From the sequence record SRR20825019_641: 41,067 nucleotides of DNA, one strand, 5' to 3'. The position numbers and the translations under genes are program-made. The first letter of the stretch is position 1. Each line of letters opens with the position of its first letter. Under the pieces are notes generated by a model that had not been told where the DNA came from, did not search any database, and saw only the letters and a list, made by a program, of their open reading frames with translations. Below, piece after piece: positions 21,645 through 35,326 of the stretch.

Positions 21645-22541
21645 TTACTCAGTCTGGTAATCAGCCAATTTTTCAGGACCTTCCAATAAGACCCGCACGA
21701 TTTGAAGAGTACCATCGGGTTTGGTATCTATGTGCCATTTGATAAGAGATACTTCCCCATTTAGAATCTCGATGCCGGTGATGCTCCTTGGATGAACACA
21801 ACTTCCATCATTAAAAAAAGGAATTTGGCCGGGCTCGGGAAACCGAGGCCTGTGCGTATGACCCGCTAAAGTGACCAGCAAGTCTTTTTTGAGTATCCAA
21901 CGTTTGATTCGTTTTTCGATACGGATAAGCTCCTTGTAGTTTTTGGCAGGGCTGGTAGGGTCGGCAATGCCGACAACTTGTAGAGGTTTCCATAAGATCC
22001 TCACCAAAAAACGACCAATGCGCCAGCACACATAATTCCACCAATCCGCTTGGTGACCGTGAACACAAAAAAGTTCCTGACCCGTTTTGGTATGTTTTAA
22101 AATAAGCGCTTCATGATAGGTGATTCCCTCAAAAAGTTCTTTGTCGGAGCCGTCGATGGGCTCAAAATAATGTGAGAGGTGTTTATCAACATATTCAGAA
22201 TCACGATAAACCATATCATGGTTGCCCCAAAGCATATGGAGGCGTTTTTCCAAATGGAACCGTTTTAATAATTGATAAACATTCTTATGCGCCTCAAAAA
22301 TGGCTTCGAAACTGATGTTTTCCCAAAGTTCATCACCATCCCCCAATTCGATATAGGTAAAACCCTCCCGGTAGTAATGATTGAGTGCATGGAAATAAAT
22401 ATTCCTGTTATTGGCAAAATCGTCCGCAAAACTATTGTCCCCCCGATGGCAGTCGCTGAAAAAGATAAACTTGGAATCTTCGTCGAATGGAATCGTCACA
22501 GCATTTTTGTAGGCTCTGTCTAATCGTTTTGATGAGGACAT
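21645..22541 (-). CDS. Calcineurin-like metallophosphoesterase (LpxH-like arrangement, substrate unknown)
   Basis: SDCH, LGDGDE, GNHD, HGH, GHTH and NDGS motifs; no signal peptide. Confidence 0.85.
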   Translation of the reverse strand: MSSSKRLDRAYKNAVTIPFDEDSKFIFFSDCHRGDNSFADDFANNRNIYFHALNHYYREGFTYIELGDGDELWENISFEAIFEAHKNVYQLLKRFHLEKRLHMLWGNHDMVYRDSEYVDKHLSHYFEPIDGSDKELFEGITYHEALILKHTKTGQELFCVHGHQADWWNYVCWRIGRFLVRILWKPLQVVGIADPTSPAKNYKELIRIEKRIKRWILKKDLLVTLAGHTHRPRFPEPGQIPFFNDGSCVHPRSITGIEILNGEVSLIKWHIDTKPDGTLQIVRVLLEGPEKLADYQTE

Positions 22542-22600: not shown

Positions 22601-22632
22601 TTGGAACTGCATTTTTACTTTTTGTAACTTTG
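22601..22632 (+). promoter_or_regulatory. Bacteroidota -33/-7 promoter for the GAF-domain gene
   Basis: TTG at 22601-22603, a 21-nt spacer, then TAACTTTG at 22625-22632; 26 nt upstream of the ATG at 22659. Confidence 0.65.
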
Positions 22633-22658
22633 TTCCCTAATCCACGACTAAGTTGGGT

Positions 22659-25034
22659 ATGAATCACAACCTCAATTCGGAGAGCCCTCTGGTTCAATTG
22701 GTAAGCTTCAATAAATTGTTGGAGCATTACGATGAACAGCTTCATAGTAACAATGTACATGAAGTGGAACGCGCAAAGTATGTCTTGGCCAAACAGGCCC
22801 CATACCCAGAGTTGAGAGAAGGTTTCACCGATTTGTCCTTGTTGGAAAAGCACAAGGATGTGATTCGAGTGATTTTGGAGGATTCTTTTTCGCCCATTTT
22901 GACCAAGAACGAAATCAAGACCGCATCTACGCCATTTGAGAATTTGGTGTTCAACTCATCCGAACGTTTTCGTCAGATTTTGAAAGATGCAGGCGAAGAT
23001 TTTGATTTAACCATCACCAATATCCCTAGGGAGTTTGATTATATTATGAGGTGTACCGTGATTTTAAAATTCCATTACGGATATAACCTTGATTTTAAGC
23101 GTCCCTTCTTTTACGATATACCGGATACCAATAGTGTGATGCGCAGGTACCGTATTTTGTACAATGCGGATTTTATGGAAATCATTCCCACCGAAAATGC
23201 CAAGGAACTTACGCAGGAAGACGTGGACGAGTTGCTGGACAACTTCTACAATTTGGATATATGGAGGGAGAAAATTCCGCCAAATAGCTTTATTGCCAAA
23301 GGCTTTGTTATTTCCAATATGTTCGATGTAACGTCGGAACATTCCGTATCAGAAATAAAATCGACCTTGATAGGCCGTGCCCAAAGAGGAAAGGACACCT
23401 TTATGGAAAGTTTTGATGATACCTTTAGGTCGTTCTTCAATCTTAACGATATCAAAGTTGGTTTCTCGGGATACGATTCCAGTGCCAATCGCTTTTTTAA
23501 GATATATGGCAAGGGGATGGAAAGTTACATCCTTAATGGGAAGGATATGGAAGAATGCGATTCCATGTTCTGCAACCATACCCATGGAAAATTGTTCAAG
23601 GAGAACAAGTATTTTGCCATCTCCAATGTAGAAAAATATTTTGAAGGTTCGCACGGTGAGATTCAACCTTATAAAAGTTTGATGGAGCAAGGCATCAAAA
23701 GTGCCATATTGGCTCCCATCGCCGTAAATGGGAACCTTTTGGGCGTTTTGGAATTGGTATCGGGCAAGGTCAACGAACTCAATAGTGTTAACGCAAACAA
23801 GTTGGATGATGTGATGCCTTACATTGTCGCCGCCGTGATGCGGACCATAGAAGAAGAGGAAAACTTGATCGATGCCGTAATCCAGCATGAGTGTACCTCG
23901 GTCCATCCGTCCGTGTATTGGAAATTCCAAGAAGAAGCCAAGCGTTTTATGGCAGACGAACTTGCGGGCAACGAACCTGTGTTCAAAGAAGTGGTTTTCA
24001 AGGACGTATACCCTTTGTATGGCCAAATTGATATCAAAGATTCGGCCCAAGAGCGAAATCTCGCCATCCAAAGGGATTTAATGATTCAACTTTCGGAGAT
24101 CAACGATGTGCTGGATATCGCTTTTCAAAAATATAAACTCCCTATTTACGAAGAATTGCAATTTAGGGTGAACAATTATTTGAGCGAGGTAAAAGAAGCC
24201 TTGTACACACATACAGAGCAAGCCGTTTTTGATTTTGTGAAGGAAGAAGTAGACCCTGTATTTAATCATCTCCAAAAAGAAGATGAAGAAATTGCCGGTT
24301 TGTTGGAGCAATACAATCAAAAAATAGATAAGGCCACCGAGAGCTATTACGATCACCGTAGAAATTACGATAACAGTGTAATGGAGGCCAATATGAAGCT
24401 TGCCGCTCTTCTTGATAAAAGGCAGGAAGAAGCACAGGAAATGTTCCCGCACTATTTTGAACGCTATAAAACCGATGGCGTTGAGCACAACATGTATATT
24501 GGAAGTTCCATTACAAAGGACAGGGAGTTCAGTGAACTGTTCTTGAGCAATCTTAGATTGTGGCAGCTCCAGGTAATGTGCGAAATGGAAAATAAATACT
24601 ACAGTCTAAAGCCAAAGTTGCCTGTAAAATTGGACGTGGCTTCCTTGGTGTTGGTGTACAGCACATCATTGGCGATACGATTTAGGATGGACGAGAAGCG
24701 TTTTGATGTGGACGGTACATACAATGCACGTTACGAAGTGATCAAAAAACGTATCGATAAATCATTCATAAAGGGAACCAATGAACGTTTGACACAAAAG
24801 GGTAAATTGGCCATTGTGTACTCCCAACGTAAAGATGAAAAGGAGTATATGCGATATATTAGCTTCCTAAAGGCGAAAGGCTATTTTACCAATAACATTG
24901 AAATCGTGGAGCTCGAAGGAGTTCAAGGTGTATCTGGATTAAAAGCGATACGGGCAGAGATTCTTTATCAAAAGGACAAAAAATCGGAGCGCACCTATAC
25001 TTACGATGATTTAATGGAAGAACTAAACTCCTAG
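22659..25034 (+). CDS. GAF-domain protein with a C-terminal region resembling a divergent class III nucleotidyl cyclase
   Basis: GAF signature GIKSAILAPIAVNGNLLGVLELVS; soluble, no TM helix. The cyclase-like call is an inference from the motifs LYGQIDIKDS, YKTDG and RFDVDGTYN. ATG at 22659 preferred over TTG at 22653. Confidence 0.8.
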   Translation: MNHNLNSESPLVQLVSFNKLLEHYDEQLHSNNVHEVERAKYVLAKQAPYPELREGFTDLSLLEKHKDVIRVILEDSFSPILTKNEIKTASTPFENLVFNSSERFRQILKDAGEDFDLTITNIPREFDYIMRCTVILKFHYGYNLDFKRPFFYDIPDTNSVMRRYRILYNADFMEIIPTENAKELTQEDVDELLDNFYNLDIWREKIPPNSFIAKGFVISNMFDVTSEHSVSEIKSTLIGRAQRGKDTFMESFDDTFRSFFNLNDIKVGFSGYDSSANRFFKIYGKGMESYILNGKDMEECDSMFCNHTHGKLFKENKYFAISNVEKYFEGSHGEIQPYKSLMEQGIKSAILAPIAVNGNLLGVLELVSGKVNELNSVNANKLDDVMPYIVAAVMRTIEEEENLIDAVIQHECTSVHPSVYWKFQEEAKRFMADELAGNEPVFKEVVFKDVYPLYGQIDIKDSAQERNLAIQRDLMIQLSEINDVLDIAFQKYKLPIYEELQFRVNNYLSEVKEALYTHTEQAVFDFVKEEVDPVFNHLQKEDEEIAGLLEQYNQKIDKATESYYDHRRNYDNSVMEANMKLAALLDKRQEEAQEMFPHYFERYKTDGVEHNMYIGSSITKDREFSELFLSNLRLWQLQVMCEMENKYYSLKPKLPVKLDVASLVLVYSTSLAIRFRMDEKRFDVDGTYNARYEVIKKRIDKSFIKGTNERLTQKGKLAIVYSQRKDEKEYMRYISFLKAKGYFTNNIEIVELEGVQGVSGLKAIRAEILYQKDKKSERTYTYDDLMEELNS

Positions 25035-25035
25035 G

Positions 25036-26229
25036 TCAGAAAATCAACCTTTCCGGGCCAAAATACCTAAAGGCGATTATAAAAGAGATTACGGAGATGA
25101 TCATGCCCAACATAAAAATGTTATAGGTAATCCGTAGTATTTTATATTTTTTGTTAAGGACAATGCCCAAGTAATACAGGTCTTTGGTCAAGGAAGAGTA
25201 TACATAGTCCTTATCCTTTACCAGCTCTTTCAGTGCCCATTCGTATTCGGAAAGCTCCATTTGGTGAAAGTTTCCGAAAAACAGGAGGTTAACCTTTCTT
25301 TTTTCCACATCATCCTTGGTGAATTTACCACTCGTAACATTGGGCCTGGTGGCCAATACGGAAAGTACCATGGAAACAATACTGAACATAATCAAAATCA
25401 AGGTAGGATAGATCATATAGGTATTGGACGGATTGTCCAACTTGGTCAATAGATTGGCAAGCACCAAAGAAATGATTATGGCGTTGACCGAAAGTAAGAT
25501 GTTCGCTTTGGTATCGGCAATATCGCTCAATTTTAAATGATTTTTTAGCGTGACCCGGTATAGGGTTTGAACGCTTCTATCGGGACTCTCATTTTTGTAC
25601 TTGGCCTTCAAGGCTTCTTTTTTGGCAATCTTTTTTTCTTCTTTCTTTTCTTTCAACAATTTTTTAAGGTTTTGTTGTTTGCCTTCTTCCCAATTTTCCT
25701 TGGCATAGTCGGTGAAGAAATTATGTTTGGTGCGGAACATTTTAATGTTTTTGTCCCGCCATTCCTTGTTCGAATAATCGGCGATATCCAAAGCTTTGAG
25801 TTCTTCTTTTAAGAAATCGGTGGTCTCCCAATAGCTTTTTTTGGCAAAATGGGATATGTCGGCATCCCTGATAATTCCTTCCATCAAATTGGATGGCTCG
25901 TTGCACATTTTAGTGACCATGATCAAGGAGCAGACCTGTTCAATCCCTTCCGGGTCATAGTCGTTCTTTTGGAGAAAATCCCTGGCAATCTCACAACTGT
26001 TTTCCTCATGGTTTTCCCAATCTTTGGTGTGCCCCGTATCGTGTAGCCAGGCAGCTAGCATTAACCTTTCGTTTTCAACTTCGCTCATGTTATAATAGTT
26101 GAGCAATTCTTTAGTACTTTTGACTACTCTTTGGGTGTGTCGCAAGTTGTGGTACAAGAACCTTGCATCTAGTTCTTTTGTTAGTAGTTCAGAAACAAAG
26201 TGTTCAGTTTTTTCAACGATTTCCGACAT
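25036..26229 (-). CDS. HD-superfamily phosphohydrolase fused to a Pycsar-effector-like (DUF5706/PycTM) membrane domain
   Basis: YHNLRH...AAWLHDTGH...HEENS...IRDAD HD motifs; Lys/Glu-rich linker; ADTKANILL followed by a TM pair, NLLFFGNF, and KKYKILR plus a terminal TM. Confidence 0.82.
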   Translation of the reverse strand: MSEIVEKTEHFVSELLTKELDARFLYHNLRHTQRVVKSTKELLNYYNMSEVENERLMLAAWLHDTGHTKDWENHEENSCEIARDFLQKNDYDPEGIEQVCSLIMVTKMCNEPSNLMEGIIRDADISHFAKKSYWETTDFLKEELKALDIADYSNKEWRDKNIKMFRTKHNFFTDYAKENWEEGKQQNLKKLLKEKKEEKKIAKKEALKAKYKNESPDRSVQTLYRVTLKNHLKLSDIADTKANILLSVNAIIISLVLANLLTKLDNPSNTYMIYPTLILIMFSIVSMVLSVLATRPNVTSGKFTKDDVEKRKVNLLFFGNFHQMELSEYEWALKELVKDKDYVYSSLTKDLYYLGIVLNKKYKILRITYNIFMLGMIISVISFIIAFRYFGPERLIF

Positions 26230-26282
26230 AGTTCCAGATTAGAGCATCCAAATTACAAAATTTTGGAATCAACCTCGTGTAT

Positions 26283-29200
26283 ATGAAGAAACATTACTTT
26301 TTACTGTTTTTAATGGTCTTGGCCTCTGCTTGTGCAACATATGAAGTCAAATATGCAGAGCCTTTTTCCGCACACAATGTTCTAATCGAAAAGGAGGTCG
26401 AACATACGTTTTATTTGATTGGCGATGCAGGGAAATCCCCGATGGGTGATGTAAACCCTACTCTAAAAGCGTTTAAAAAAGTTTTAGATCAGGCCGACGC
26501 CAATAGTACCGCCATCTTTTTGGGAGATAATATTTATCCTGCTGGCCTACCCGATAAAAAGGATTCCACCATTGCATATCTGGAAGCCAAAAACCATTTG
26601 GATGCCCAATTGAGCACTTTGGAGAACTACAAGGGAAAAAAGCTTTTTATCCCGGGAAACCACGATTGGTATACCGAGGGGCTCAAAGGACTAAAGCGTG
26701 AAGAGAAATACATAGAGGATGCATTGGATGATAATGATGCTTTTCAGCCGGAGAACGGATGCCCCATCGAGGAGATAGAGGTCAATGACAAGGTCCTGCT
26801 CGTCGCCATTGATACAGAGTGGTACATTGTAAATTGGGACAAGCATCCCACAATAAATGATGATTGCGAAATAAAGAGCAGAAACCGTTTTTTTGAGGAA
26901 TTGGAGAGCATAATCAAGAAAAATAGGGACAAAACCATCATTTTGGCCATGCACCATCCTATGTTTACCTATGGCTCGCACGGTGGTCAATTTTCATTTA
27001 AGCAAGGCATATATCCCAACGGAGGAAAAGTTCCGTTGCCTATTTTGGGGTCTGCCATTAATCTGCTGCGAAAAACTTCAGGAGCCACTTCGGAAGATAT
27101 ATCCAACAGAAAGTATAACGAGCTTAAGCAAAGAATTGTGACCCTTTCCCAATATTCCGATAAGATCATATTTGCGTCCGGTCATGAGCATACGCTTCAG
27201 TACATCGAGGAATATGGGAAACCTCAAATTGTAAGTGGTTCGGGAGCCAAAACAGGTACCACCCGACTGTTGAACGGCAGTAAATTTTCAACAGGTAAAA
27301 CTGGCTATGCAATTTTGAGGGTGTATAAAGATGGCTCGTCCCAAGTCGAGTTTTATGGTGCCGATGCCAATGCAACTGCACTGCTATATCAAACTGAAGT
27401 GCTACCTCCCGATAGGTCCACGGAACGAATGGGACTGTCCGAAGATTTTCCTCCGTATAAAATGGCGTCCGTATACGAACCGGAAGAGATCGAGAAGAGT
27501 GGGTTTCACAAGTTGCTTTGGGGCGAACGGTACAGGAAGTATTATGGGACCAAAGTAAAAGCACCCACCGTTCGGTTGGATACCCTCTTTGGAGGGCTGA
27601 CCGTTGTTCGAAAAGGAGGCGGGAATCAATCTAACTCATTGCGATTGGCCGATAAAGATGGTAGGGAGTATGTAATGAGGGGCTTGAGAAAAAGTGCAGA
27701 GCGATACCTTCAGGCCATAGCTTTTCAAGATCAATACGTCATTGGAAAGTTCGAGGACACATACCCCGAAAAATTGTTGTTGGATCTATATACAGGTGCG
27801 CATCCGTATGCACCATTTACCATTGATAGACTATCGGACGCGCTTGGAATTTACCATACCAACCCTAAGCTGTACTATGTGCCAAAGCAATCTGTTTTGG
27901 GAGATTACAACAAGGAGTTCGGTGATGGCCTGTACATGATAGAGGAGCATGTTTCCGATGACCACGATAATCTGGAAAGCTTCGGATACACCAAGAAAAT
28001 AGAAAGTACCTACGATTTGATGGACAAGCTCCGGGAAGATGAGGAGTACAGTATTGATCAAAAGGAGTATGTAAAGGCCAGATTGTTCGATATTTTGATC
28101 GGGGATTGGGACAGGCATGTGGATCAATGGCGTTGGGCAGAATTTAAAACCGAAGACGGAAACAAGGTATACAAACCTATTGCCCGTGATAGAGATCAGG
28201 TATTTTCCCGTTGGGGAGATGGCCTCATCATGAACTTTGGATCCAGGGCAGTTCCGGCGCTTCGTATTTTTGAAGGATTCCATGAAGAGGTTAGAAGCGT
28301 GAAAGGGTTGACATCTTCACCCAGAACCTTTGCCTTGGATATGGCCTTGCTTACAGAAACCGATATGGAAATGTGGGTAGAGCAGGCCAAGTTTATTCAA
28401 CAAAACCTGACAGGTGAAATAATCGACGAGGCTTTTTTGGCTTTTCCCGAAGAGGTAAGGGACGAAACCTTGACAGAAATCAAAAGAATTCTTTTGGCCC
28501 GAAAAGAAAACTTGGTGCAAACGGCACGTGAGTACTATGCCGTTTTGAACAAATACAGCGTAATTACGGGCACGGATAAAGATGATTATTTCAATATTAC
28601 TTCTCTTTCCAATGGTGATGTTGAGGTGAGGGCGTACCGAATCAAAGGCGGGGAGTATACGGATCTGTTCTTCAATAAGGTGTATAGTCTCGATTATACC
28701 AAAGAAATATGGATTTATGGACTTGATGATGGCGATGTTTTTGAGGCCAACACGGAAACATCAAAAATAAAAGTGCGTATCGCTGGAGGTCAAAACAATG
28801 ACGTTTATAAGGTCTCGGAAGATTCCAAACGGCTTTTGATCTATGATTTTAAATCAAAGAAAAACACTTTGGAGGAAGCCTACGGCGGTAAGGTAAAATT
28901 GGTTAATGATTACGATACCAATACGTACGACTTTCTGAACATAAAGGGCAGTAACAATCAAACGTTGCCTACTGTAGGATTCAATCCAGACGATGGCGTT
29001 AGGATAGGCTTGGCCAATACCTATACCTTTAATGGATTCAGAAAAAATCCATTTACGCAGCAGCATACGGTAAGTGCAGCCTACTATTTTGCCACGGATG
29101 GTTTTGATTTGGGCTATCGCGGAGAATTTGCACATGTTTTCAACAAGGTGAATTTGGAGCTTCGAGCAAGGTTCACAAGTCCTAATTTCACCCAAAACTT

Positions 29201-29996
29201 TTTTGGTTTTGGGAACGAGACGGTCAATAATGATGATGAAGAACCCTTAGAGTTGGATTATAACCGGGTCCGTATCCGAAACTTGAGATTTGCACCATCA
29301 TTGGTGTGGCGCGGATTTTTTGGTTCCAAGGCACGATTGGGAGTATCCTATGAGAACATTGAAATCGAGGAAACCGAAGACAGGTTCATTAATGAATTTT
29401 ACTTAGAAAATGGAGAGGAAAACCACCTGAGCTTTTTTGGGGTCGATGGCAAATACAGCTATTCCAATACCGATAACGAGGCCTTTCCGACTTTGGGAAT
29501 GGCATTTGCCCTCGAAGGTGGGTTTAAGACCAATTTGGATGATTCCTCCAAGTCGTTCGGATATGTGGTTCCATCATTTTCTATAGATCACAAACTTACC
29601 GCAGATGGCATGTTAGTGCTCGCTACCAAGTTCAAGGGACATTTTATTATCGGGGATGGCTACGAATTTTACCAAGCTGCCAGTATTGGTGGAAACAATG
29701 GGTTGCGAGGATTCCGTTTCCAAAGATTTTCCGGCAAAACAGCCTATTTTCAAAATACCGACCTTAGGTATAGCTTTAGAAGTATGAAGACCGGCCTGAT
29801 GCCAATAACACCAGGAATTTATGGAGGGTTTGACTATGGCCGCGTTTGGTATCCCGGTGAAGAATCGAATAAATGGCACAATTCGTACGGAGGAGGATTC
29901 TTCTTAAATGGAGTGGATGTGCTTACGGCCAACTTTGGGCTTTTCAACAGTGTGGATGGGCTACGTTTTGCTTTTGGGCTCGGATTTGGGTTTTAA
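26283..29996 (+). CDS. Lipoprotein fusing a metallophosphoesterase, a kinase-like middle domain and an Omp85/BamA-type beta-barrel
   Basis: Lipobox LASAC; phosphoesterase motifs GDAG, GDNIY, GNHDW, HHP, GHEH; middle domain KGGGNQS, GDWDRH, RDRD; barrel with LRGF motif and C-terminal FAFGLGFGF. ATG at 26283. Confidence 0.85.
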   Translation: MKKHYFLLFLMVLASACATYEVKYAEPFSAHNVLIEKEVEHTFYLIGDAGKSPMGDVNPTLKAFKKVLDQADANSTAIFLGDNIYPAGLPDKKDSTIAYLEAKNHLDAQLSTLENYKGKKLFIPGNHDWYTEGLKGLKREEKYIEDALDDNDAFQPENGCPIEEIEVNDKVLLVAIDTEWYIVNWDKHPTINDDCEIKSRNRFFEELESIIKKNRDKTIILAMHHPMFTYGSHGGQFSFKQGIYPNGGKVPLPILGSAINLLRKTSGATSEDISNRKYNELKQRIVTLSQYSDKIIFASGHEHTLQYIEEYGKPQIVSGSGAKTGTTRLLNGSKFSTGKTGYAILRVYKDGSSQVEFYGADANATALLYQTEVLPPDRSTERMGLSEDFPPYKMASVYEPEEIEKSGFHKLLWGERYRKYYGTKVKAPTVRLDTLFGGLTVVRKGGGNQSNSLRLADKDGREYVMRGLRKSAERYLQAIAFQDQYVIGKFEDTYPEKLLLDLYTGAHPYAPFTIDRLSDALGIYHTNPKLYYVPKQSVLGDYNKEFGDGLYMIEEHVSDDHDNLESFGYTKKIESTYDLMDKLREDEEYSIDQKEYVKARLFDILIGDWDRHVDQWRWAEFKTEDGNKVYKPIARDRDQVFSRWGDGLIMNFGSRAVPALRIFEGFHEEVRSVKGLTSSPRTFALDMALLTETDMEMWVEQAKFIQQNLTGEIIDEAFLAFPEEVRDETLTEIKRILLARKENLVQTAREYYAVLNKYSVITGTDKDDYFNITSLSNGDVEVRAYRIKGGEYTDLFFNKVYSLDYTKEIWIYGLDDGDVFEANTETSKIKVRIAGGQNNDVYKVSEDSKRLLIYDFKSKKNTLEEAYGGKVKLVNDYDTNTYDFLNIKGSNNQTLPTVGFNPDDGVRIGLANTYTFNGFRKNPFTQQHTVSAAYYFATDGFDLGYRGEFAHVFNKVNLELRARFTSPNFTQNFFGFGNETVNNDDEEPLELDYNRVRIRNLRFAPSLVWRGFFGSKARLGVSYENIEIEETEDRFINEFYLENGEENHLSFFGVDGKYSYSNTDNEAFPTLGMAFALEGGFKTNLDDSSKSFGYVVPSFSIDHKLTADGMLVLATKFKGHFIIGDGYEFYQAASIGGNNGLRGFRFQRFSGKTAYFQNTDLRYSFRSMKTGLMPITPGIYGGFDYGRVWYPGEESNKWHNSYGGGFFLNGVDVLTANFGLFNSVDGLRFAFGLGFGF

Positions 29997-30014: not shown

Positions 30015-32099
30015 TCAATCCGGGTTTTCCAAAAGATAGAGTGCCATTCTAATTTTCCAATAAGGTATCTCTTCCTTAAAATGAATAAAATAAGGTTTCA
30101 GGCCTTCCACTTCATCACCAAGCTCGGCTTTGGCCGATTGGATTTTATTGATATCTTCTTTGGATATGAATTGATGTAAATCAATGGACCCACCCTCTTC
30201 GTGGACTTTAATAAAATGATTATAAATGGTATCTTCCTTCAATTCCCGTTGTCTAGAAATATCGGAGACCTTCATGCCTTTTTCAAATAGTGAAAATGAG
30301 AGCTCATGAGTGCTTTTCTTGGATGCCGACCAAGCATTGATGACTGTAAGGAAGCGTGCGCCATATTTGTTCTTTTTTGCTTCGCCCACGCCACTTACTT
30401 CCATAAAATCTGTAATTGTTTCGGGTAGTTTGGCTTCCATATCCCGCAACGTGTAATCGCTGAATACGATGTAGGCAGGTACTTTTTCTTCAACGGCTAT
30501 TTCTGTACGGAGAGCTTTTAATTTATCGAACAGACCGGTGGATTGCATTCTTTCGGTTTTTTTGCCATGGGAAGTTTTTTCCACTTTCCGGAATAACGCA
30601 AGCTGGACTTTTCGACCTTCAAATAAAATTTGATTGGCCAAAGGGGTAAGCAGCAAGCGCCCATTCTCATGAAAACGAATCTCCAAAATACCTTGATTGA
30701 CCATTTGGATGATATACTGTTGCAAATCCTGCCAAGAAATGTCCTTAACAGCACCAAAGGTTTTTATATTTTGATAGCCTTTGTCATATACTCGGGCATT
30801 TTGAGAACCACGGAGTACATCTACAACTATGGTTATAGCTTCTTGTTGCTTTAACCGATATACTGCCGAGCAGACTTTCTGTGCCAATATGGTACCATCG
30901 AAATATTGGGGAGGGGATTTACAATTGTCACAATGACCGCAATTTTCCGAAACATGTTCGCCAAAATAGTTCAACAAGGCAACACGACGACAGCTTAAGG
31001 CTTCGGCAAACTGTTGCATACGTTCTAATTTGGCTAGCTGTACATCCCTTGTGGGTGAATCTTCTATAAATTTTCGCAGTTGGATCACATCGGAAAAGCT
31101 GTAAAACAACAAAGTGTCTGCGGGCAGACCATCGCGCCCACTTCGACCAATTTCCTGATAGTACCCCTCAATATTTTTAGGCATGTTATAATGGATTACC
31201 CACCGTACATTGCTTTTGTCAATACCCATCCCAAAAGCAATGGTCGCCACGATTATTGATGTGCGGTCATTGACAAAGTCTTCTTGCACCCTGTTGCGTG
31301 CCTCTGCTTCCATTCCGGCGTGGTATGCCTTGGCGTTCAATCCATTATTGTTTAATTTTTCAGCTAGTTTTTCAGTGCCTTTTCGGCTCAGACAATAAAT
31401 AATTCCATTTTGGTCTGTCCGTTGTTCCAAGAATTGGATTATTTGTTGAAACCGATTCGTCCCGGGACGTACTTCGAGAAATAGATTCTTTCGGTCGAAA
31501 GAAGCAATGTGCCTTTCTGCATTTTTTATATTGAGCTGTTCAAGAATATCGTTTTGCGCTGCACTATCGGCAGTGGCAGTAAATGCAGCTATTGGAACGT
31601 TTGGGAAAAGTTCCTTCAGTTGATTTAACTGCGTGTAGGCTGGACGAAAATCGTGTCCCCAAGCCGAAATACAGTGAGCTTCATCCACTGCGAACAAACT
31701 CACATTGTCATCGGTTAAATATGGTAGCAAATGTGGTAGGCTTTCGGGAGCTATGTATAGAAGCTTGATTTGCTGCGACTGAAGTTTTTTTAAAATTTCG
31801 TTTTGTGTTGCATGCGCCTGGCTGCTATTGTAAAATGATGCTGCAATACCGTTGGCCCGGAGTGCATCCACTTGATCCTTCATTAAGGCTATAAGGGGGG
31901 AAACCACAATGGCCGTCCCATTAAGAAGAAGTGCAGGTAACTGAAAACAAATAGACTTTCCACCACCGGTGGGCATTATGCACAAAAGGTCCGATCCTTC
32001 TAAAATACTACTGACAATGGCTTGCTGATTGGGCAAAAAGGAATCAAAACCAAAGTGCTCTTTTAAGAGCTGTAGGCTAAGTTGTTGTTTGGGAACCAT
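30015..32099 (-). CDS. recQ: ATP-dependent DNA helicase RecQ with HRDC domain and C-terminal HTH
   Basis: MPTGGGKS, DEAHC-ISAWGHDFRP, TATA, ATIAFGMGIDK, QEIGRSGRDG, Zn motif CRR...CGHCDNC, HRDC VPAYIVFSD. Confidence 0.95.
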   Translation of the reverse strand: MVPKQQLSLQLLKEHFGFDSFLPNQQAIVSSILEGSDLLCIMPTGGGKSICFQLPALLLNGTAIVVSPLIALMKDQVDALRANGIAASFYNSSQAHATQNEILKKLQSQQIKLLYIAPESLPHLLPYLTDDNVSLFAVDEAHCISAWGHDFRPAYTQLNQLKELFPNVPIAAFTATADSAAQNDILEQLNIKNAERHIASFDRKNLFLEVRPGTNRFQQIIQFLEQRTDQNGIIYCLSRKGTEKLAEKLNNNGLNAKAYHAGMEAEARNRVQEDFVNDRTSIIVATIAFGMGIDKSNVRWVIHYNMPKNIEGYYQEIGRSGRDGLPADTLLFYSFSDVIQLRKFIEDSPTRDVQLAKLERMQQFAEALSCRRVALLNYFGEHVSENCGHCDNCKSPPQYFDGTILAQKVCSAVYRLKQQEAITIVVDVLRGSQNARVYDKGYQNIKTFGAVKDISWQDLQQYIIQMVNQGILEIRFHENGRLLLTPLANQILFEGRKVQLALFRKVEKTSHGKKTERMQSTGLFDKLKALRTEIAVEEKVPAYIVFSDYTLRDMEAKLPETITDFMEVSGVGEAKKNKYGARFLTVINAWSASKKSTHELSFSLFEKGMKVSDISRQRELKEDTIYNHFIKVHEEGGSIDLHQFISKEDINKIQSAKAELGDEVEGLKPYFIHFKEEIPYWKIRMALYLLENPD

Positions 32100-32160
32100 A
32101 ACTCCCAAATGTCATTAATTAAATGATTAAAAGCAAATTAGAAAGGTTACAGGGAAATTG

Positions 32161-32222: not shown

Positions 32223-33080
32223 TTATCGAAATCGGTATTGATAAAGCTTTCTACCTCCGTGCTTGTTTTCCTCATCGGCGACCAAGAGGGTTTTATCATC
32301 ATAAAAGCACACTGATTCAATCTGGGTGTCGGTCTGTAGATCAATGACCTCAATAGAGGCTTTTGTAAAATCCGGAGCGGTGAAATCCGTCAGTAGAAAA
32401 ATATATCCATAGCTTAACAGGGCAATGGTTTTGCCATCGGGAGAAATATCCGCACTGGTCACCGAACAATGATCCTGATCTCCGCATAGGAACAAGTCAC
32501 CTAAAAATTCAGCCTCATATTCCCCTTTTTTATCGGGCACACGGTACATCAAAGTTTTTCCAGAATAGGGTCGTGTACGGTTTTTGGTAAAAATGTAGAG
32601 GTAATCGTTCAGATGGAAAAAGCCTTCTGTATCAAAATAAAGGCTGTCCTTCTCTGGTGGGAAGTTGGTTTGCTGAGGGTAAGAGAACTCAATCTTATCC
32701 GAGTTGGGCTCTTTTTTCCCCATTTCATCTTTGGTAACCTTATAAATGACCAAATCTTCCCGAGCATTTTTGTTGTTGCCAAAATCCCCAATATACAGGT
32801 TGCCTTCGGTATCCATGGTCAAATCTTCCCAATCAACGTTCTTGGCATGGTCAATTTTCAGTGATTCCTTAATATCACCCTTTTTATCGACCCTATAAAT
32901 TTTATCCTTGTTACCACTATCTTCAATAACCCATATCTTGCCATCTTTGGTCACCTCCAAACCAGAAACTTCTTTGAGCTTGGAAGGGAATTTGGCCAGT
33001 TTTTCCAATTCGACCACATAGGTTTTCTGGGCACAGCCCTGCACTACAATCAATAAAAAAACAAGGGCAAGTTTATTCAT
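32223..33080 (-). CDS. Lipoprotein with predicted beta-propeller (SdiA-regulated/YjiK-like)
   Basis: Lipobox VQGC; blade motifs EVSGL, DWEDL, LYIGDFGNN, DTEG, VTSADISPDG, QIESVCF. Confidence 0.7.
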   Translation of the reverse strand: MNKLALVFLLIVVQGCAQKTYVVELEKLAKFPSKLKEVSGLEVTKDGKIWVIEDSGNKDKIYRVDKKGDIKESLKIDHAKNVDWEDLTMDTEGNLYIGDFGNNKNAREDLVIYKVTKDEMGKKEPNSDKIEFSYPQQTNFPPEKDSLYFDTEGFFHLNDYLYIFTKNRTRPYSGKTLMYRVPDKKGEYEAEFLGDLFLCGDQDHCSVTSADISPDGKTIALLSYGYIFLLTDFTAPDFTKASIEVIDLQTDTQIESVCFYDDKTLLVADEENKHGGRKLYQYRFR

Positions 33081-33972
33081 CGGATTCTTTTATGGGCATG
33101 AATACTTCGGTGGTCCAATCCAGTCCATCCCCACCCATATTGGGGTTGTTATAGAAAATCTCGATAGGTTTTTTCTCTACGGGAATGTTGTTTTTTTGGG
33201 CGTAATCCAGCAAAGCGTACCATGCACGATCTGATGTTATATAGTGTCCATGGTAAACAGCCTTGATGGCATTTTTACGGTAAATCCGTTTGTATTTTAT
33301 ATCCGGGTGATCGGGGAGTTTTTCTGAACGGATGATGGGATTGCAAAAATTAAAGGAAAGACTGTTGTTTTTCAAATCCCAATCCAATACTTCCACAAAA
33401 GGGGGGCCGTTCAACTGGACTTCATTTTCCATAAGCAATATGTCCAAAAGGTTATAATTGGCCATCATTCCCTGTGTTTTGTTTTCGGGAGCGGTGTTCA
33501 GTGTGACGCAGGCACAAAATGATGAGAATATTTCTGCTTCACCTTCAATGGAAACACTGAATTTTTTTATGTGTTCAGTCAAAAAACCGTTGAAGTCTAA
33601 AAGTCGTTTTCGGGAACCTTTCTCAAAATTGGTATCTGAAAAAGGCACGGATAGCCTATTGTTGACCGAATTTTCAATATCCTTGATGTTTACTTGAACA
33701 TCGCTCAAAGAATCGTGAATAGGGTTTATTTCCCATTCATATACATGAACGGAATCGTTCACATATATGGTTTGCTTAAAGTGACGTGGGCTTATATAAT
33801 CTATAGGGCCTACAGAGTCAAAACTGTTGTTCCATGCTTTTACGGTTTCAAATATGGTCCCAGGAATTGCCTTGGCCTTAAAATTGACCTGATAATCTTG
33901 GGGCTTTAACAACAGGTACCACAAAATTACTCCTACCACTAGGGCAAGGATCATAGAAATAATCTTCTTCAT
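33073..33972 (-). CDS. Membrane-anchored GyrI-like small-molecule-binding domain protein
   Basis: N-terminal TM anchor; C-terminal AIKAVYHGHY...AWYALLDYA...PIEIFYNNP...WTTEVFMPI, typical of the GyrI/AraC effector-binding fold. Confidence 0.78.
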   Translation of the reverse strand: MKKIISMILALVVGVILWYLLLKPQDYQVNFKAKAIPGTIFETVKAWNNSFDSVGPIDYISPRHFKQTIYVNDSVHVYEWEINPIHDSLSDVQVNIKDIENSVNNRLSVPFSDTNFEKGSRKRLLDFNGFLTEHIKKFSVSIEGEAEIFSSFCACVTLNTAPENKTQGMMANYNLLDILLMENEVQLNGPPFVEVLDWDLKNNSLSFNFCNPIIRSEKLPDHPDIKYKRIYRKNAIKAVYHGHYITSDRAWYALLDYAQKNNIPVEKKPIEIFYNNPNMGGDGLDWTTEVFMPIKESDE

Positions 33973-33994
33973 AACTAAGGAGCAAAAATACGGA

Positions 33995-35326
33995 TTAGCC
34001 TTTTGTCATATCCAATTTGTCGACTATAAATTTTCCTAGGTCCCTTCCTTGTTTAATACCTACCTCAATGGCAGCACGATAATGGATTCCTCCGTACATG
34101 CGGCTCAATGCGGCCTCGTCCGAGGCTTGGTTAAAGGATGTAAAGGAACGTACAGGCAAACCGTAGGGCACTTCGGTATCATCATCAAAGGCAAAATTGT
34201 CGCCGAATATATCGGTCAGCGCTATGGCCGCCGCACCGGATACAACACTGTGTCCACTGGTGTATTCAGGGAACGGAGGTGTTTGCAGTACGGGTTCCCA
34301 ACTGTCATCGATGTACTCGTTGATAACGGTTTCAGGGCGAATAAGGTTACTTCTGTATTTTTCGTCCCAACAGCTGATAAAACCGTCGGCGATGGCAATG
34401 GATGTCTTTGTGTGAGCGTATACTGTTTTGGCAAAATCGGCATTGGTTTTTCTTGATGCAATTTTTGTGATGCCTATCCAGTGGGCCCCGGGAGTAATCT
34501 TCTTAGTGGCAAACATTAGGTGTCCTCTGGTCACGGAAACATATGGGTTACAATCCCAAAACTGGGCAATGGCTATTTCATCGGATTTGTCGCCTTTGCC
34601 CACCATACTTTTTCTGACTTCGTATACCTCCATTACTTCTTCATAGAATTTGGAGTCTTTCTCCATGGAAAATTCTGGTGGCGGAATGGGCTTGAACTGC
34701 TGTGCGGAATCAATTGCAAAGGGGCGTATCTTCATCCAATGTGGCTCAATCCCGTTCATATAGGCCGGGGGAGTGGGCTGCCAGCGAGAAGGGTCTTCCG
34801 AATCTACGGAGAACTTGGGCATAGTACGCGTTTCCTTGTAATTGTCCTTGTTCATCCAATCCCCTACAAAGTTGGCCACTTCCACCCCGTATTCCTTACT
34901 GGCATTAAAAACGGTCTCGTTTTTGTCCATCCAAATGGTGTAGAGACTATCCCTAAAACTTTCCATTCTTTCTTCGGAAAAGATGAGTCTCTTGCTAATG
35001 TCCATATGGGCGATCAAGGCGGCCATTTCGTAGTTGATGTTCTCACTGTTTTTAGGGTCCGGAATATTTTTCAAATCGGTTACCTGCCCTGCCAAGGATT
35101 TGTAGTCATCGTTGCCCTTGGCAACAATTTCGTATGCTGCAATGTTGGAGTAGGCGAATATTCTACTGGCCACCGGTGGAGAGAATATATCGTGGATCAT
35201 TATTTCGATCACTTTGTCCACAGACGCATGGAATTCCTCTGGAGAAACTTCAACAGGTTCCTCTTTTTTTTGGCATGATGCCAAAACCAATACTACTGCT
35301 GTGATCAAACGTATTCTTTTTTTCAT
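33995..35326 (-). CDS. Vanadium-dependent haloperoxidase / PAP2-superfamily lipoprotein
   Basis: Lipobox LASC; K-x6-RP (KYRSNLIRP), TPPFPEYTSGH and SRMYGGIH vanadate/phosphate-binding motifs. Confidence 0.88.
   Translation of the reverse strand: MKKRIRLITAVVLVLASCQKKEEPVEVSPEEFHASVDKVIEIMIHDIFSPPVASRIFAYSNIAAYEIVAKGNDDYKSLAGQVTDLKNIPDPKNSENINYEMAALIAHMDISKRLIFSEERMESFRDSLYTIWMDKNETVFNASKEYGVEVANFVGDWMNKDNYKETRTMPKFSVDSEDPSRWQPTPPAYMNGIEPHWMKIRPFAIDSAQQFKPIPPPEFSMEKDSKFYEEVMEVYEVRKSMVGKGDKSDEIAIAQFWDCNPYVSVTRGHLMFATKKITPGAHWIGITKIASRKTNADFAKTVYAHTKTSIAIADGFISCWDEKYRSNLIRPETVINEYIDDSWEPVLQTPPFPEYTSGHSVVSGAAAIALTDIFGDNFAFDDDTEVPYGLPVRSFTSFNQASDEAALSRMYGGIHYRAAIEVGIKQGRDLGKFIVDKLDMTKG

Follow-up and report, generated by a model that had tools for sequence, protein, structure and literature searches.

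The window is the whole stretch of DNA analysed here, 41,067 nt from sequence record SRR20825019_641, and the subject of this report is a group of three adjacent genes within it, called P0001, P0002 and P0003. In its predicted structure P0001 joins a GAF domain to the fold of a class III nucleotidyl cyclase, P0002 is an HD phosphohydrolase fused to a PycTM membrane domain, and P0003 is a lipoprotein with phosphatase, kinase-fold and barrel regions. The three stay together across much of the Flavobacteriaceae, and the evidence points to an undescribed housekeeping signalling or phosphate-handling system rather than a phage-defence island.

A first-pass annotation, made from the letters of the window alone, had described three large packed genes, and the open reading frame (ORF) list confirms them at the same coordinates. 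P0001 and P0002 converge, ending at 25034 and 25036 with one base between them. P0002 and P0003 diverge, and the 53 nt that the annotation counted between their starts holds if P0003 begins at the ATG at 26283. The genes and their domains are as follows.

22659..25034, +, P0001, cytoplasmic GAF plus cyclase-fold protein (ORF list; the ATG start gives 791 amino acids, aa)
22689..23324, +, P0001 N-terminal alpha/beta region, residues ~13-224 (confidently modelled; no fold-search match centred there)
23325..23876, +, P0001 GAF domain, residues ~225-408 (VIA: 3k2n_B, Z 12.0, root-mean-square deviation (rmsd) 2.9, 168 residues aligned)
23991..24968, +, P0001 domain with predicted class III nucleotidyl-cyclase fold, residues ~447-772 (VIA structure search)
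24042..24443, +, helical insert in the P0001 cyclase fold, residues ~464-597 (DSSP of the AlphaFold2 model)
25036..26229, -, P0002, HD-PycTM inner-membrane protein, 397 aa (ORF list, Pfam)
25660..26172, -, P0002 HD phosphohydrolase domain, residues ~20-190 (Pfam HD covers 29-103)
25054..25557, -, P0002 PycTM domain, pJV1-SpdB3-type with three transmembrane segments (3TM), residues ~225-392 (PF18967 covers 266-375; PADLOC PycTM covers 227-387)
26283..29996, +, P0003, outer-membrane lipoprotein (ORF list; the GTG at 26277 gives 1239 aa)
26412..27266, +, P0003 calcineurin-like metallophosphoesterase, residues ~46-330 (Pfam Metallophos, PF00149)
27444..28550, +, P0003 predicted atypical kinase-fold domain, residues ~390-758 (AlphaFold2 model and VIA)
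28551..28943, +, P0003 beta-roll-like repeat region, residues ~759-889 (short regular strands; low confidence)
28944..29996, +, P0003 Omp85-like beta-barrel, residues ~890-1239 (NCBIfam, Pfam)

Residue numbers of P0001 are counted from an alternative TTG start at 22653 (ORF 22653..25034, +, 793 aa), on which the ATG at 22659 is residue 3; the homologs are 791 aa long, in agreement with the ATG. Those of P0003 are counted from the GTG at 26277. The sequence TAACTTTG lies at 22625-22632 (+), 27 nt upstream of the P0001 ATG, and fits TAnnTTTG, which we take to be the -7 element of Bacteroidetes promoters; the match carries no statistics.

Domains of the three proteins

At 50% identity the P0001 family falls into 1454 clusters with E<=1e-3, of which 712 reach E<=1e-30. 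The members of the 150 clusters listed are mostly ~790 aa long and matched over nearly their full length, and homologs are annotated as 'GAF domain-containing' only. P0001 itself matches no Pfam, NCBIfam or PADLOC family at E<=0.01. The Pfam GAF match of the single sequence is marginal (E 0.013, 16.5 bits against a cut-off of 22.4), but a profile from the family alignment (75 members, 29-51% identical to the query) finds GAF sequences in the PDB at E 4e-4, and a distant homolog matches Pfam GAF_2 at E 1.2e-9. With the family profile and the fold in agreement, P0001 contains a GAF domain.

The AlphaFold2 model of P0001 has a mean predicted local distance difference test (pLDDT) value of 92.5 and a predicted template modelling (pTM) score of 0.79, and the protein has no hydrophobic transmembrane segment outside the GAF core. 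Its fold was compared with VIA-align, both on Foldseek candidates and separately on 48,161 PDB representative chains. The best full-length Foldseek matches are sensor-cyclase and sensor-GGDEF enzymes, headed by the phytochrome-regulated adenylate/guanylate cyclase 6fht (E 2.9e-7, 703 columns), with DosP and soluble guanylate cyclase among the others; soluble guanylate cyclase and 6fht align with P0001 over both the GAF-like and the cyclase parts. Residues ~447-772 match 2w01 with Z 12.4-12.7 and rmsd 3.0-3.1 over 181-182 of 197-201 residues, and 3et6, 1wc1 and 3r5g with Z ~12, covering nearly the whole of these cyclase catalytic domains. Taken together, the class III matches have Z 12.0-12.7 and rmsd 3.0-3.2 with 178-195 residues aligned, on targets of ~190 residues (8sl4_A is a 970-residue chain). 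Pycsar cyclases also match (8jsz, Z 11.1-11.2; 8jsf, 10.3; 7r65, 9.4), and no GGDEF domain is found among the top 50 structural matches. In the model, then, P0001 has the class III cyclase fold, and the cryptic cyclase suspected in the first-pass annotation is borne out at the level of the fold, residues ~447-772 spanning whole class III domains.

A helical insert of ~135 residues separates the first strand (448-462) of this domain from the beta-hairpin (601-617) and consists of helices 464-494, 497-515, 521-543, 545-557 and 567-597 by DSSP. It probably explains the failure of sequence methods on the cyclase domain. Of 16 residues invariant among the 75 family members, 12 are inside the cyclase-fold domain: D460, S464, D475, Q595, P599, D608, G609, G617, K698, R700, K703 and R712. 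D460 ends the first strand, D608-G609 sit at the tip of the hairpin, and the third conserved block is followed by a helix that bears K698, R700 and K703; N691 is conserved in at least 90% of the family. Class III cyclases have two metal-binding Asp residues, one at the end of the first strand and one in the beta2-beta3 hairpin, together with a transition-state Asn/Arg pair and phosphate-binding basic residues. D460, D608-G609 and K698/R700/K703 fall where we presume the metal-binding Asp and the nucleotide- or phosphate-binding residues to lie, and from the modelled fold we infer cyclase activity for P0001.

A search of the ESM Atlas with the C-terminal half of P0001 finds only its own family, a third of whose members are labelled PF27174 'YeeD'. 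This Pfam 38.1 label appears on some P0001 homologs and could bear on the novelty of the family.

P0002 matches Pfam HD (PF01966) with E 2.5e-7 and 31.4 bits against a cut-off of 22, and PycTM (PF18967) with E 7.8e-37 and 126.4 bits against 27.2; it also matches the PADLOC PycTM and 2TM effector models, with E down to 1.5e-18. Its hydrophobic segments (240-264, 270-296 and 364-392) agree with the 3TM pJV1-SpdB3 description of PycTM and PucTM proteins in the Pucsar preprint (10.64898/2026.08.12.744502). Both halves look functional from their conservation, because the HD ligands and 37 membrane-half residues, from R225 on, are invariant in 21 orthologs. The invariant residues of the HD half are H27, H31, H63, D64, H74, E75, D122, D124, H127 and H169; the metal-ligand set H27/H31, H63-D64 and D122/D124 is kept in all 21. 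The ESM Atlas returns only generic 'HD domain' clusters for this half, and P0002 matches nothing among PDB sequences at E<=1. For comparison, EcPucTM is described in the Pucsar preprint as a hexameric cylinder whose cGMP site is unresolved (10.64898/2026.08.12.744502).

The label of a surface phosphatase-kinase-Omp85 fusion, given to P0003 in the first-pass annotation, is upheld by a Metallophos match, a kinase fold and an Omp85-like C-terminus. The lipoprotein-type N-terminus ends at a Cys (C19) that is invariant in 21 orthologs. The Metallophos match has E 1.5e-10 and 42.2 bits against a cut-off of 21.5, and G127, N128, H227, G302 and H303 are invariant in the phosphoesterase. The middle region, modelled by AlphaFold2 from 72 orthologs (pLDDT 88.3), resembles PI4KIIalpha (4hnd_A, Z 14.7, 258 residues aligned) and CotH (5jda_A, Z 14.3, 250/359), and in the wide VIA search also CtkA (Z 12.1), HipA (11.3) and Fam20 (~10). 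Invariant in the 72 sequences of this region are K472, E557, R602, D605, G609, D610, D612, R613, D616, Q617, W618, D638, R639 and D640. P0003 has no Pfam CotH or kinase match, so that its membership of the kinases is put at the level of the modelled fold, in which K472, E557, D612 and D638/D640 would be the residues with catalytic roles.

A weak match (Z 7.6, 80 residues) relates the beta-roll-like region of P0003 to the RTX block of 7usl_C. Its C-terminus matches NCBIfam Omp85_fam NF047779 with E 1.2e-17 and 64.5 bits, below the cut-off of 200, and Pfam ShlB with E 7e-4 and 19.6 bits, below the cut-off of 22.7; two distant orthologs, at the loci L189 and L194, match Pfam Omp85 with 33.9 and 42.9 bits against a cut-off of 24. 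There is also a weak match to PADLOC PDC-M03A (E 1.3e-4), and P0003 finds nothing among PDB sequences at E<=1. In several genera P0003 occurs in tandem double or triple copies adjoining P0002 (loci L026, L029 and L034; genomes G006, G016, G075, G101 and G138).

Linkage and distribution of the genes

In a sample of one genome per genus from 151 genera of Flavobacteriaceae, P0001 occurs in 111 (at E<=1e-20) and P0003 in 113, while 121 have a P0002 match of any kind. The 111 genomes with P0001 are the same 111 that hold a full-length P0002, a count that takes only full-coverage matches plus one match cut by a contig end. P0001 and P0002 lie at most 150 bp apart in 96 of the 111 (91 convergent, 5 co-directional) and at most 1 kb apart in 104; five pairs are more than 1 kb apart and two are on different contigs. 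Among 109 cases on the same contig, P0003 has a copy no more than 200 bp from P0002 in 64, no more than 3 kb away in 84 and no more than 12 kb away in 101; these distances rest on the matches listed, which do not include 41 further P0003 matches. Five genera have the one-strand order P0002>P0001>P0003, with gaps of 41-65 nt and then roughly 30-80 nt. Fifteen of the 20 genomes listed without P0001 are 2.7 Mb or smaller.

The surroundings were compared in two further sets of loci. A search with the P0001 family alignment kept 80 of 573 relatives, all from Flavobacteriaceae. The first set is 63 named Flavobacteriaceae loci with full 8-kb flanks; as best matches they are biased to closer relatives. 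P0002 is near P0001 in 62 of these 63 loci and P0003 in 57, and the commonest order is MPE298< P0001> <P0002 P0003> <hyp285 (28/63), where MPE298 and hyp285 are two neighbouring genes described below. The second set is a control of 20 loci, hand-picked for holding the trio and biased to low identity, which were searched with the full set of 26 window proteins. Apart from the trio, the only genes among the remaining 23 to recur there are hyp285 (7/20) and MPE298 (1/20).

The module is present in 111 of 151 genera, at 40-75% identity. Over 21 genomes, the pairwise distances of P0001, P0002 and P0003 are correlated (r 0.69-0.79), a level reached by none of 2000 permutations and expected for joint vertical descent. 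The clustering of the trio exceeds chance, because it persists over 111 genera while the flanking genes change, and the linkage and co-distribution on which the first-pass annotation had made its proposal depend are both found (111/151 genera, 63 loci).

Outside the family the picture is looser. Profile searches of 301 Bacteroidota genomes find P0001 in 47, with 21 of 22 in Flavobacteriaceae and patchy occurrence elsewhere. P0002-type matches occur in 142, namely all 47 genomes with P0001 and 95 of the 254 without it; 45 of the 47 have both halves of P0002 in one frame among the matches listed. Twenty distant P0001 loci were chosen for a check of their neighbourhoods, with 8-kb flanks. The trio recurs in four, of which L190 is from another family of Flavobacteriales and also has hyp285, and L189 is from another class; L194 and L195 have the one-strand order P0002>PPK1>phytase-like propeller>P0003>P0001, and a hyp285 homolog lies within the co-directional cluster of L194. 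Two of the 20 have only a P0003-like neighbour. One distant P0001 homolog (L177:8586-11594, -, genome G186) has a long N-terminal extension, a 1002-aa ORF within a 1383-aa open frame; it matches Pfam GAF at E 1.2e-9, and beside it lie genes for a carbamoyltransferase and for a large response-regulator/LuxR protein.

Outside Flavobacteriales P0001 often lies away from P0002, and full-length HD-PycTM fusions are present in families in which no P0001 was found, so that the two proteins are not strictly interdependent. Around 20 HD-PycTM fusions chosen from genomes without P0001 (8 of them from one family), the 8-kb surroundings hold a P0003-like gene in 14, a propeller in 12, an MPE298-like gene in 7 and PPK1 in 3, and five loci have none of these partners, one being cut by a contig end. 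HD-PycTM, kinase-barrel, propeller and phosphoesterase, with or without PPK1, probably make up a wider and older module of Bacteroidota, to which P0001 has been closely joined in Flavobacteriales and in a small number of further lineages. The linkage claimed for a three-gene system therefore stands, but the system as delimited in the first-pass annotation does not: its core exists without P0001, and P0001 is often alone outside Flavobacteriales.

Neighbouring genes and the source genome

Two genes beside the trio recur with it.

21645..22541, -, MPE298, 298-aa calcineurin-like metallophosphoesterase (Pfam Metallophos, E 9.8e-6, 26.6 bits against 21.5)
32223..33080, -, hyp285, lipoprotein beta-propeller, NHL/SGL/SdiA-regulated/phytase-like (weak Pfam matches)

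MPE298 has no hydrophobic N-terminus or signal peptide. It is directly upstream of P0001 in 33 of the 63 full-flank Flavobacteriaceae loci (1/20 in the more distant family sample) and is likely a fifth member of the module. The product of hyp285 has a lipoprotein-like N-terminus and weak Pfam NHL, SGL, SdiA-regulated and Phytase-like matches; the gene is found in 39 of the 63 loci, usually right after P0003, and in 7/20 of the distant sample. It too is likely a member, here parted from P0003 by recQ. The bounds drawn in the first-pass annotation (22659..29996) are accordingly right for the three genes but too narrow for the module, which reaches past them to MPE298 and hyp285.

The intervening recQ (30015-32108, -) is complete, with DEAD, Helicase_C, RQC, Zn-binding, HRDC and HTH_40 domains. 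Only 3 of the 63 related loci have recQ at this place, which marks it as inserted into the module in particular lineages. It matches the PADLOC DpdF models at E 1.7e-222, with no other Dpd gene nearby. After hyp285 come hyp299, a membrane-anchored protein with a weak GyrI-like match, and a PAP2 phosphatase (33073-35326, -). They recur near P0001 in 21/63 and 25/63 related loci and are possibly further phosphate-related neighbours.

By Pfam scan, the 23 other ORFs of the window are ordinary chromosomal genes, among them a TonB receptor, a two-component pair, trmB-like, amidase, Mrp, thioredoxin-reductase-like, ABC exporter, penicillin amidase, AraC, RecQ, PAP2 and FG-GAP proteins, and no integrase or transposase is found among them. 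PADLOC matches in the flanks (RecQ to DpdF models, the ABC transporter to mad3) are to generic domains; the flanks were considered as a defence island and rejected as such, with no other Dpd or mad components present. Flank scan, PADLOC results and vertical distribution all agree with the earlier description of housekeeping surroundings that hold no mobility genes and are not a defence island.

The names carried by near-identical proteins put the source in Muricauda/Flagellimonas/Allomuricauda, Flavobacteriaceae. Marker genes show its genome to be 100% complete. PF00211 has no match there in a six-frame whole-genome search and PF01295 has none either, so that canonical cyclases of class I and class III are both absent; the same search with PF00211 was positive in 75 of 121 genomes of Bacteroidota and in 2-4 control genomes. 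It has 12 cyclic-nucleotide-binding domains over the Pfam cut-off and one 162-aa CYTH protein (contig C38). Metatranscriptome contigs from two marine studies, mostly 100% identical to the locus, fall on P0001, the P0001/P0002 junction, P0002, the P0002/P0003 intergenic region and two spots of P0003; one run (X2) contributed none. The runs were chosen by their match to the stretch and the contigs are sparse, so the uncovered flanks and most of P0003 carry no meaning.

The genome has three further PycTM genes, among which pairings with non-cyclase partners are found. Two belong to paralogous pairs in which a gene for a 200-aa PycTM protein follows that for a Mrr-type nuclease-domain protein within ~10 nt (L002:471-1863 on contig C22 and L003:405-1857 on contig C37). 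The Mrr-type protein of L003 has an ATP-cone, and both pairs adjoin a SulP/STAS permease; they could be an undescribed nuclease-plus-PycTM defence pair. The third PycTM gene, of 166 aa, overlaps the end of a 332-aa gene without a Pfam family (L004:446-1941, contig C65).

Interpretation and relation to known systems

The reading we prefer, at about even confidence, is that the locus places a GAF-gated cyclic nucleotide monophosphate (cNMP) signal on HD-PycTM within a vertically inherited, phosphate-linked envelope module. The GAF and N-terminal domains of P0001 would sense a small molecule, and the protein would turn a nucleoside triphosphate into a cyclic-nucleotide signal. This signal would act on the PycTM-type membrane assembly of P0002, which by analogy with Pycsar and Pucsar effectors may be gated by cNMP, and the HD domain of P0002 would hydrolyse the signal or else a phosphate-ester or polyphosphate substrate. 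Through P0003 and its partners the output would be coupled to the trans-envelope handling of phosphate or polyphosphate. A housekeeping, phosphate-linked module is favoured because of its distribution, the lack of mobility and defence neighbours, and the ties to phosphatases and PPK1. The first-pass annotation had named a nucleotide- or phosphate-handling circuit as its alternative, and this is the better fit, given a core without the cyclase-like gene and the PPK1 and phosphoesterase partners.

Several observations weigh against the cyclic-nucleotide part of this reading. PF00211 does not match P0001 even at E<=10, none of the PADLOC PycC and cyclase models does (0 families), and at E<=10 the family profile recovers GAF domains but not a single cyclase from the PDB sequences. 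Alignment with hhalign of the P0001 family to 30 canonical Bacteroidota cyclase domains, in local mode and in three versions (residues 440-793; residues 595-793; the insert left out), is collinear though not significant (P 0.39-0.63). The Asn/Arg motif of class III enzymes is N-x-x-x-R and their hairpin motif G-D; the spacing in P0001 departs from N-x-x-x-R, and the ~135-residue insert could alter the chemistry. The 12 receptors lend weak support, since cyclic-nucleotide-binding domains frequently recognise something else. PPK1 of the source genome is on another contig, and the three genes of the window are three separate transcription units of mixed orientation. Their expression is weakly hinted at by the metatranscriptome contigs, which are also compatible with DNA carry-over. 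At 14 of the 20 distant loci, P0001 lacks both partners in the surrounding 8 kb and lies among unrelated housekeeping genes, and one family (f16) has the full-length HD-PycTM in 13/63 against 0/63 for P0001. The genomes compared are related rather than independent, and the distant and P0001-less loci were also hand-picked. Finally, according to the Pucsar preprint, the mode of cNMP binding by PycTM-type proteins is itself unresolved (10.64898/2026.08.12.744502).

One rival is a phosphate or polyphosphate envelope system that works without cNMP, which we regard as rather unlikely. P0001 would then be a regulator, a pseudo-enzyme or some other nucleotidyl or phosphoryl transferase, PycTM a membrane channel or anchor for the HD phosphohydrolase, and the substrates of P0003, the propeller and MPE298 would be extracytoplasmic phosphate esters or polyphosphate. 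The core does occur without P0001, sometimes with PPK1, four of the members are phosphohydrolase- or phytase-like, and P0001 has no significant sequence similarity to canonical cyclases; moreover, the other PycTM genes of the genome are paired with non-cyclases (Mrr-type), so that PycTM does not imply cNMP. This account is hard to square with a complete cyclase fold that is the top match of an unbiased structure search, with conserved acidic and basic residues placed as expected for an active nucleotide-using palm enzyme, and with the perfect co-distribution of P0001 and P0002, adjacent in Flavobacteriaceae. In addition, every PycTM or PucTM protein characterised in the available portions of the Pucsar preprint (10.64898/2026.08.12.744502) and the Nat Commun 2024 Pycsar paper responds to cNMP.

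A Pycsar-like abortive infection system that has become fixed in the chromosome, in which a phage-triggered cyclase makes the cNMP that opens a PycTM pore and so kills the cell, while the HD domain clears stray signal and thereby sets a threshold, would account for a cyclase-fold gene beside a PF18967 effector, as in Pycsar and Pucsar, and for the Pycsar cyclases among the structural matches. We nevertheless think it quite improbable: presence in 111 of 151 genera with concordant divergence is unlike the patchy pattern of mobile defence, the neighbours are not defence or mobility genes, with links instead to PPK1, phosphatases and an outer-membrane protein, and the GAF sensor and the ~790-aa size are unlike a stand-alone PycC, with no PADLOC cyclase match. 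That the genes are unrelated neighbours held together by chance or local synteny is hardly credible, even with three separate transcription units in the window and a P0001 that is often unlinked outside Flavobacteriales, since the trio is kept while the flanking genes change, the same partners appear in three arrangements, of which two run in a single direction with short gaps, and presence and absence coincide over 151 genera.

The preferred reading of a cNMP signal acting within a phosphate-linked module can be carried further, to a version that we consider unlikely. Here the sole class-III-fold cyclase of the genome would make cNMP on sensing a metabolite by its GAF domain, and the cNMP would gate an oligomeric HD-3TM channel, of one family with the Pycsar and Pucsar pore effectors, that feeds or controls an extracytoplasmic CotH/Fam20-like kinase-phosphatase in an Omp85 barrel. 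Polyphosphate would possibly replace ATP as the donor, and the anti-phage PycTM effectors would share an origin with the module, either being a repurposed form of the other. If that were true, the locus would supply the missing cNMP source for the many orphan cNMP-binding proteins of Flavobacteria.

Among described systems, Pycsar and Pucsar are the closest, having a cyclase and a PycTM-type effector where the window has a cyclase-fold gene 1 nt from a PF18967 PycTM gene, and P0001 resembles 8jsz, 8jsf and 7r65 in fold. The differences are considerable: P0001 is ~790 aa long with N-terminal and GAF domains, a ~135-residue insert and no match to a cyclase hidden Markov model (HMM); the effector here bears an N-terminal HD hydrolase; and the module is near-core and vertical in Flavobacteriaceae, tied to a phosphatase-kinase and elsewhere to PPK1. 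Neither an HD fusion nor a GAF-linked cyclase is mentioned in the available portions of the Pucsar preprint (10.64898/2026.08.12.744502) or of the Nat Commun 2024 Pycsar paper, and literature searches found no description of the P0001 family or of the module. GAF-regulated class III cyclases (cyanobacterial CyaB-type, the engineered 6fht, soluble guanylate cyclase) share with P0001 the series of sensor, signalling helix and cyclase fold; unlike them, P0001 has an insert after the first strand, a D-G rather than a G-D hairpin and basic residues at other spacings, and shows no detectable sequence similarity in the catalytic domain.

P0003 residues ~390-758 share the fold of the CotH, PI4KII and Fam20 kinases and an invariant Lys/Glu/Asp set, but in P0003 the domain is part of a lipoprotein, with a metallophosphoesterase on one side of it and an Omp85-like barrel on the other. 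CotH and Fam20 act outside the cytoplasm. PgpH-type cyclic di-AMP phosphodiesterases likewise join an HD domain to a multi-pass membrane domain, and P0002 has the invariant His and Asp residues; its domain order is reversed and its membrane domain unrelated.

If P0001 is a cyclase, at least 1454 clusters of ~790-aa proteins form a cyclase class that is invisible to HMM surveys, and cNMP censuses of Bacteroidota, many of which are apparently cyclase-less, are incomplete. PycTM, which has been known solely as a phage-defence suicide pore, would gain a conserved everyday role, which would bear on the origins of defence effectors. The combination in P0003 of a phosphatase with a predicted kinase fold outside the cytoplasm, linked to PPK1 in some lineages, raises the question of phosphate-donor chemistry in the envelopes of marine and soil Bacteroidota.

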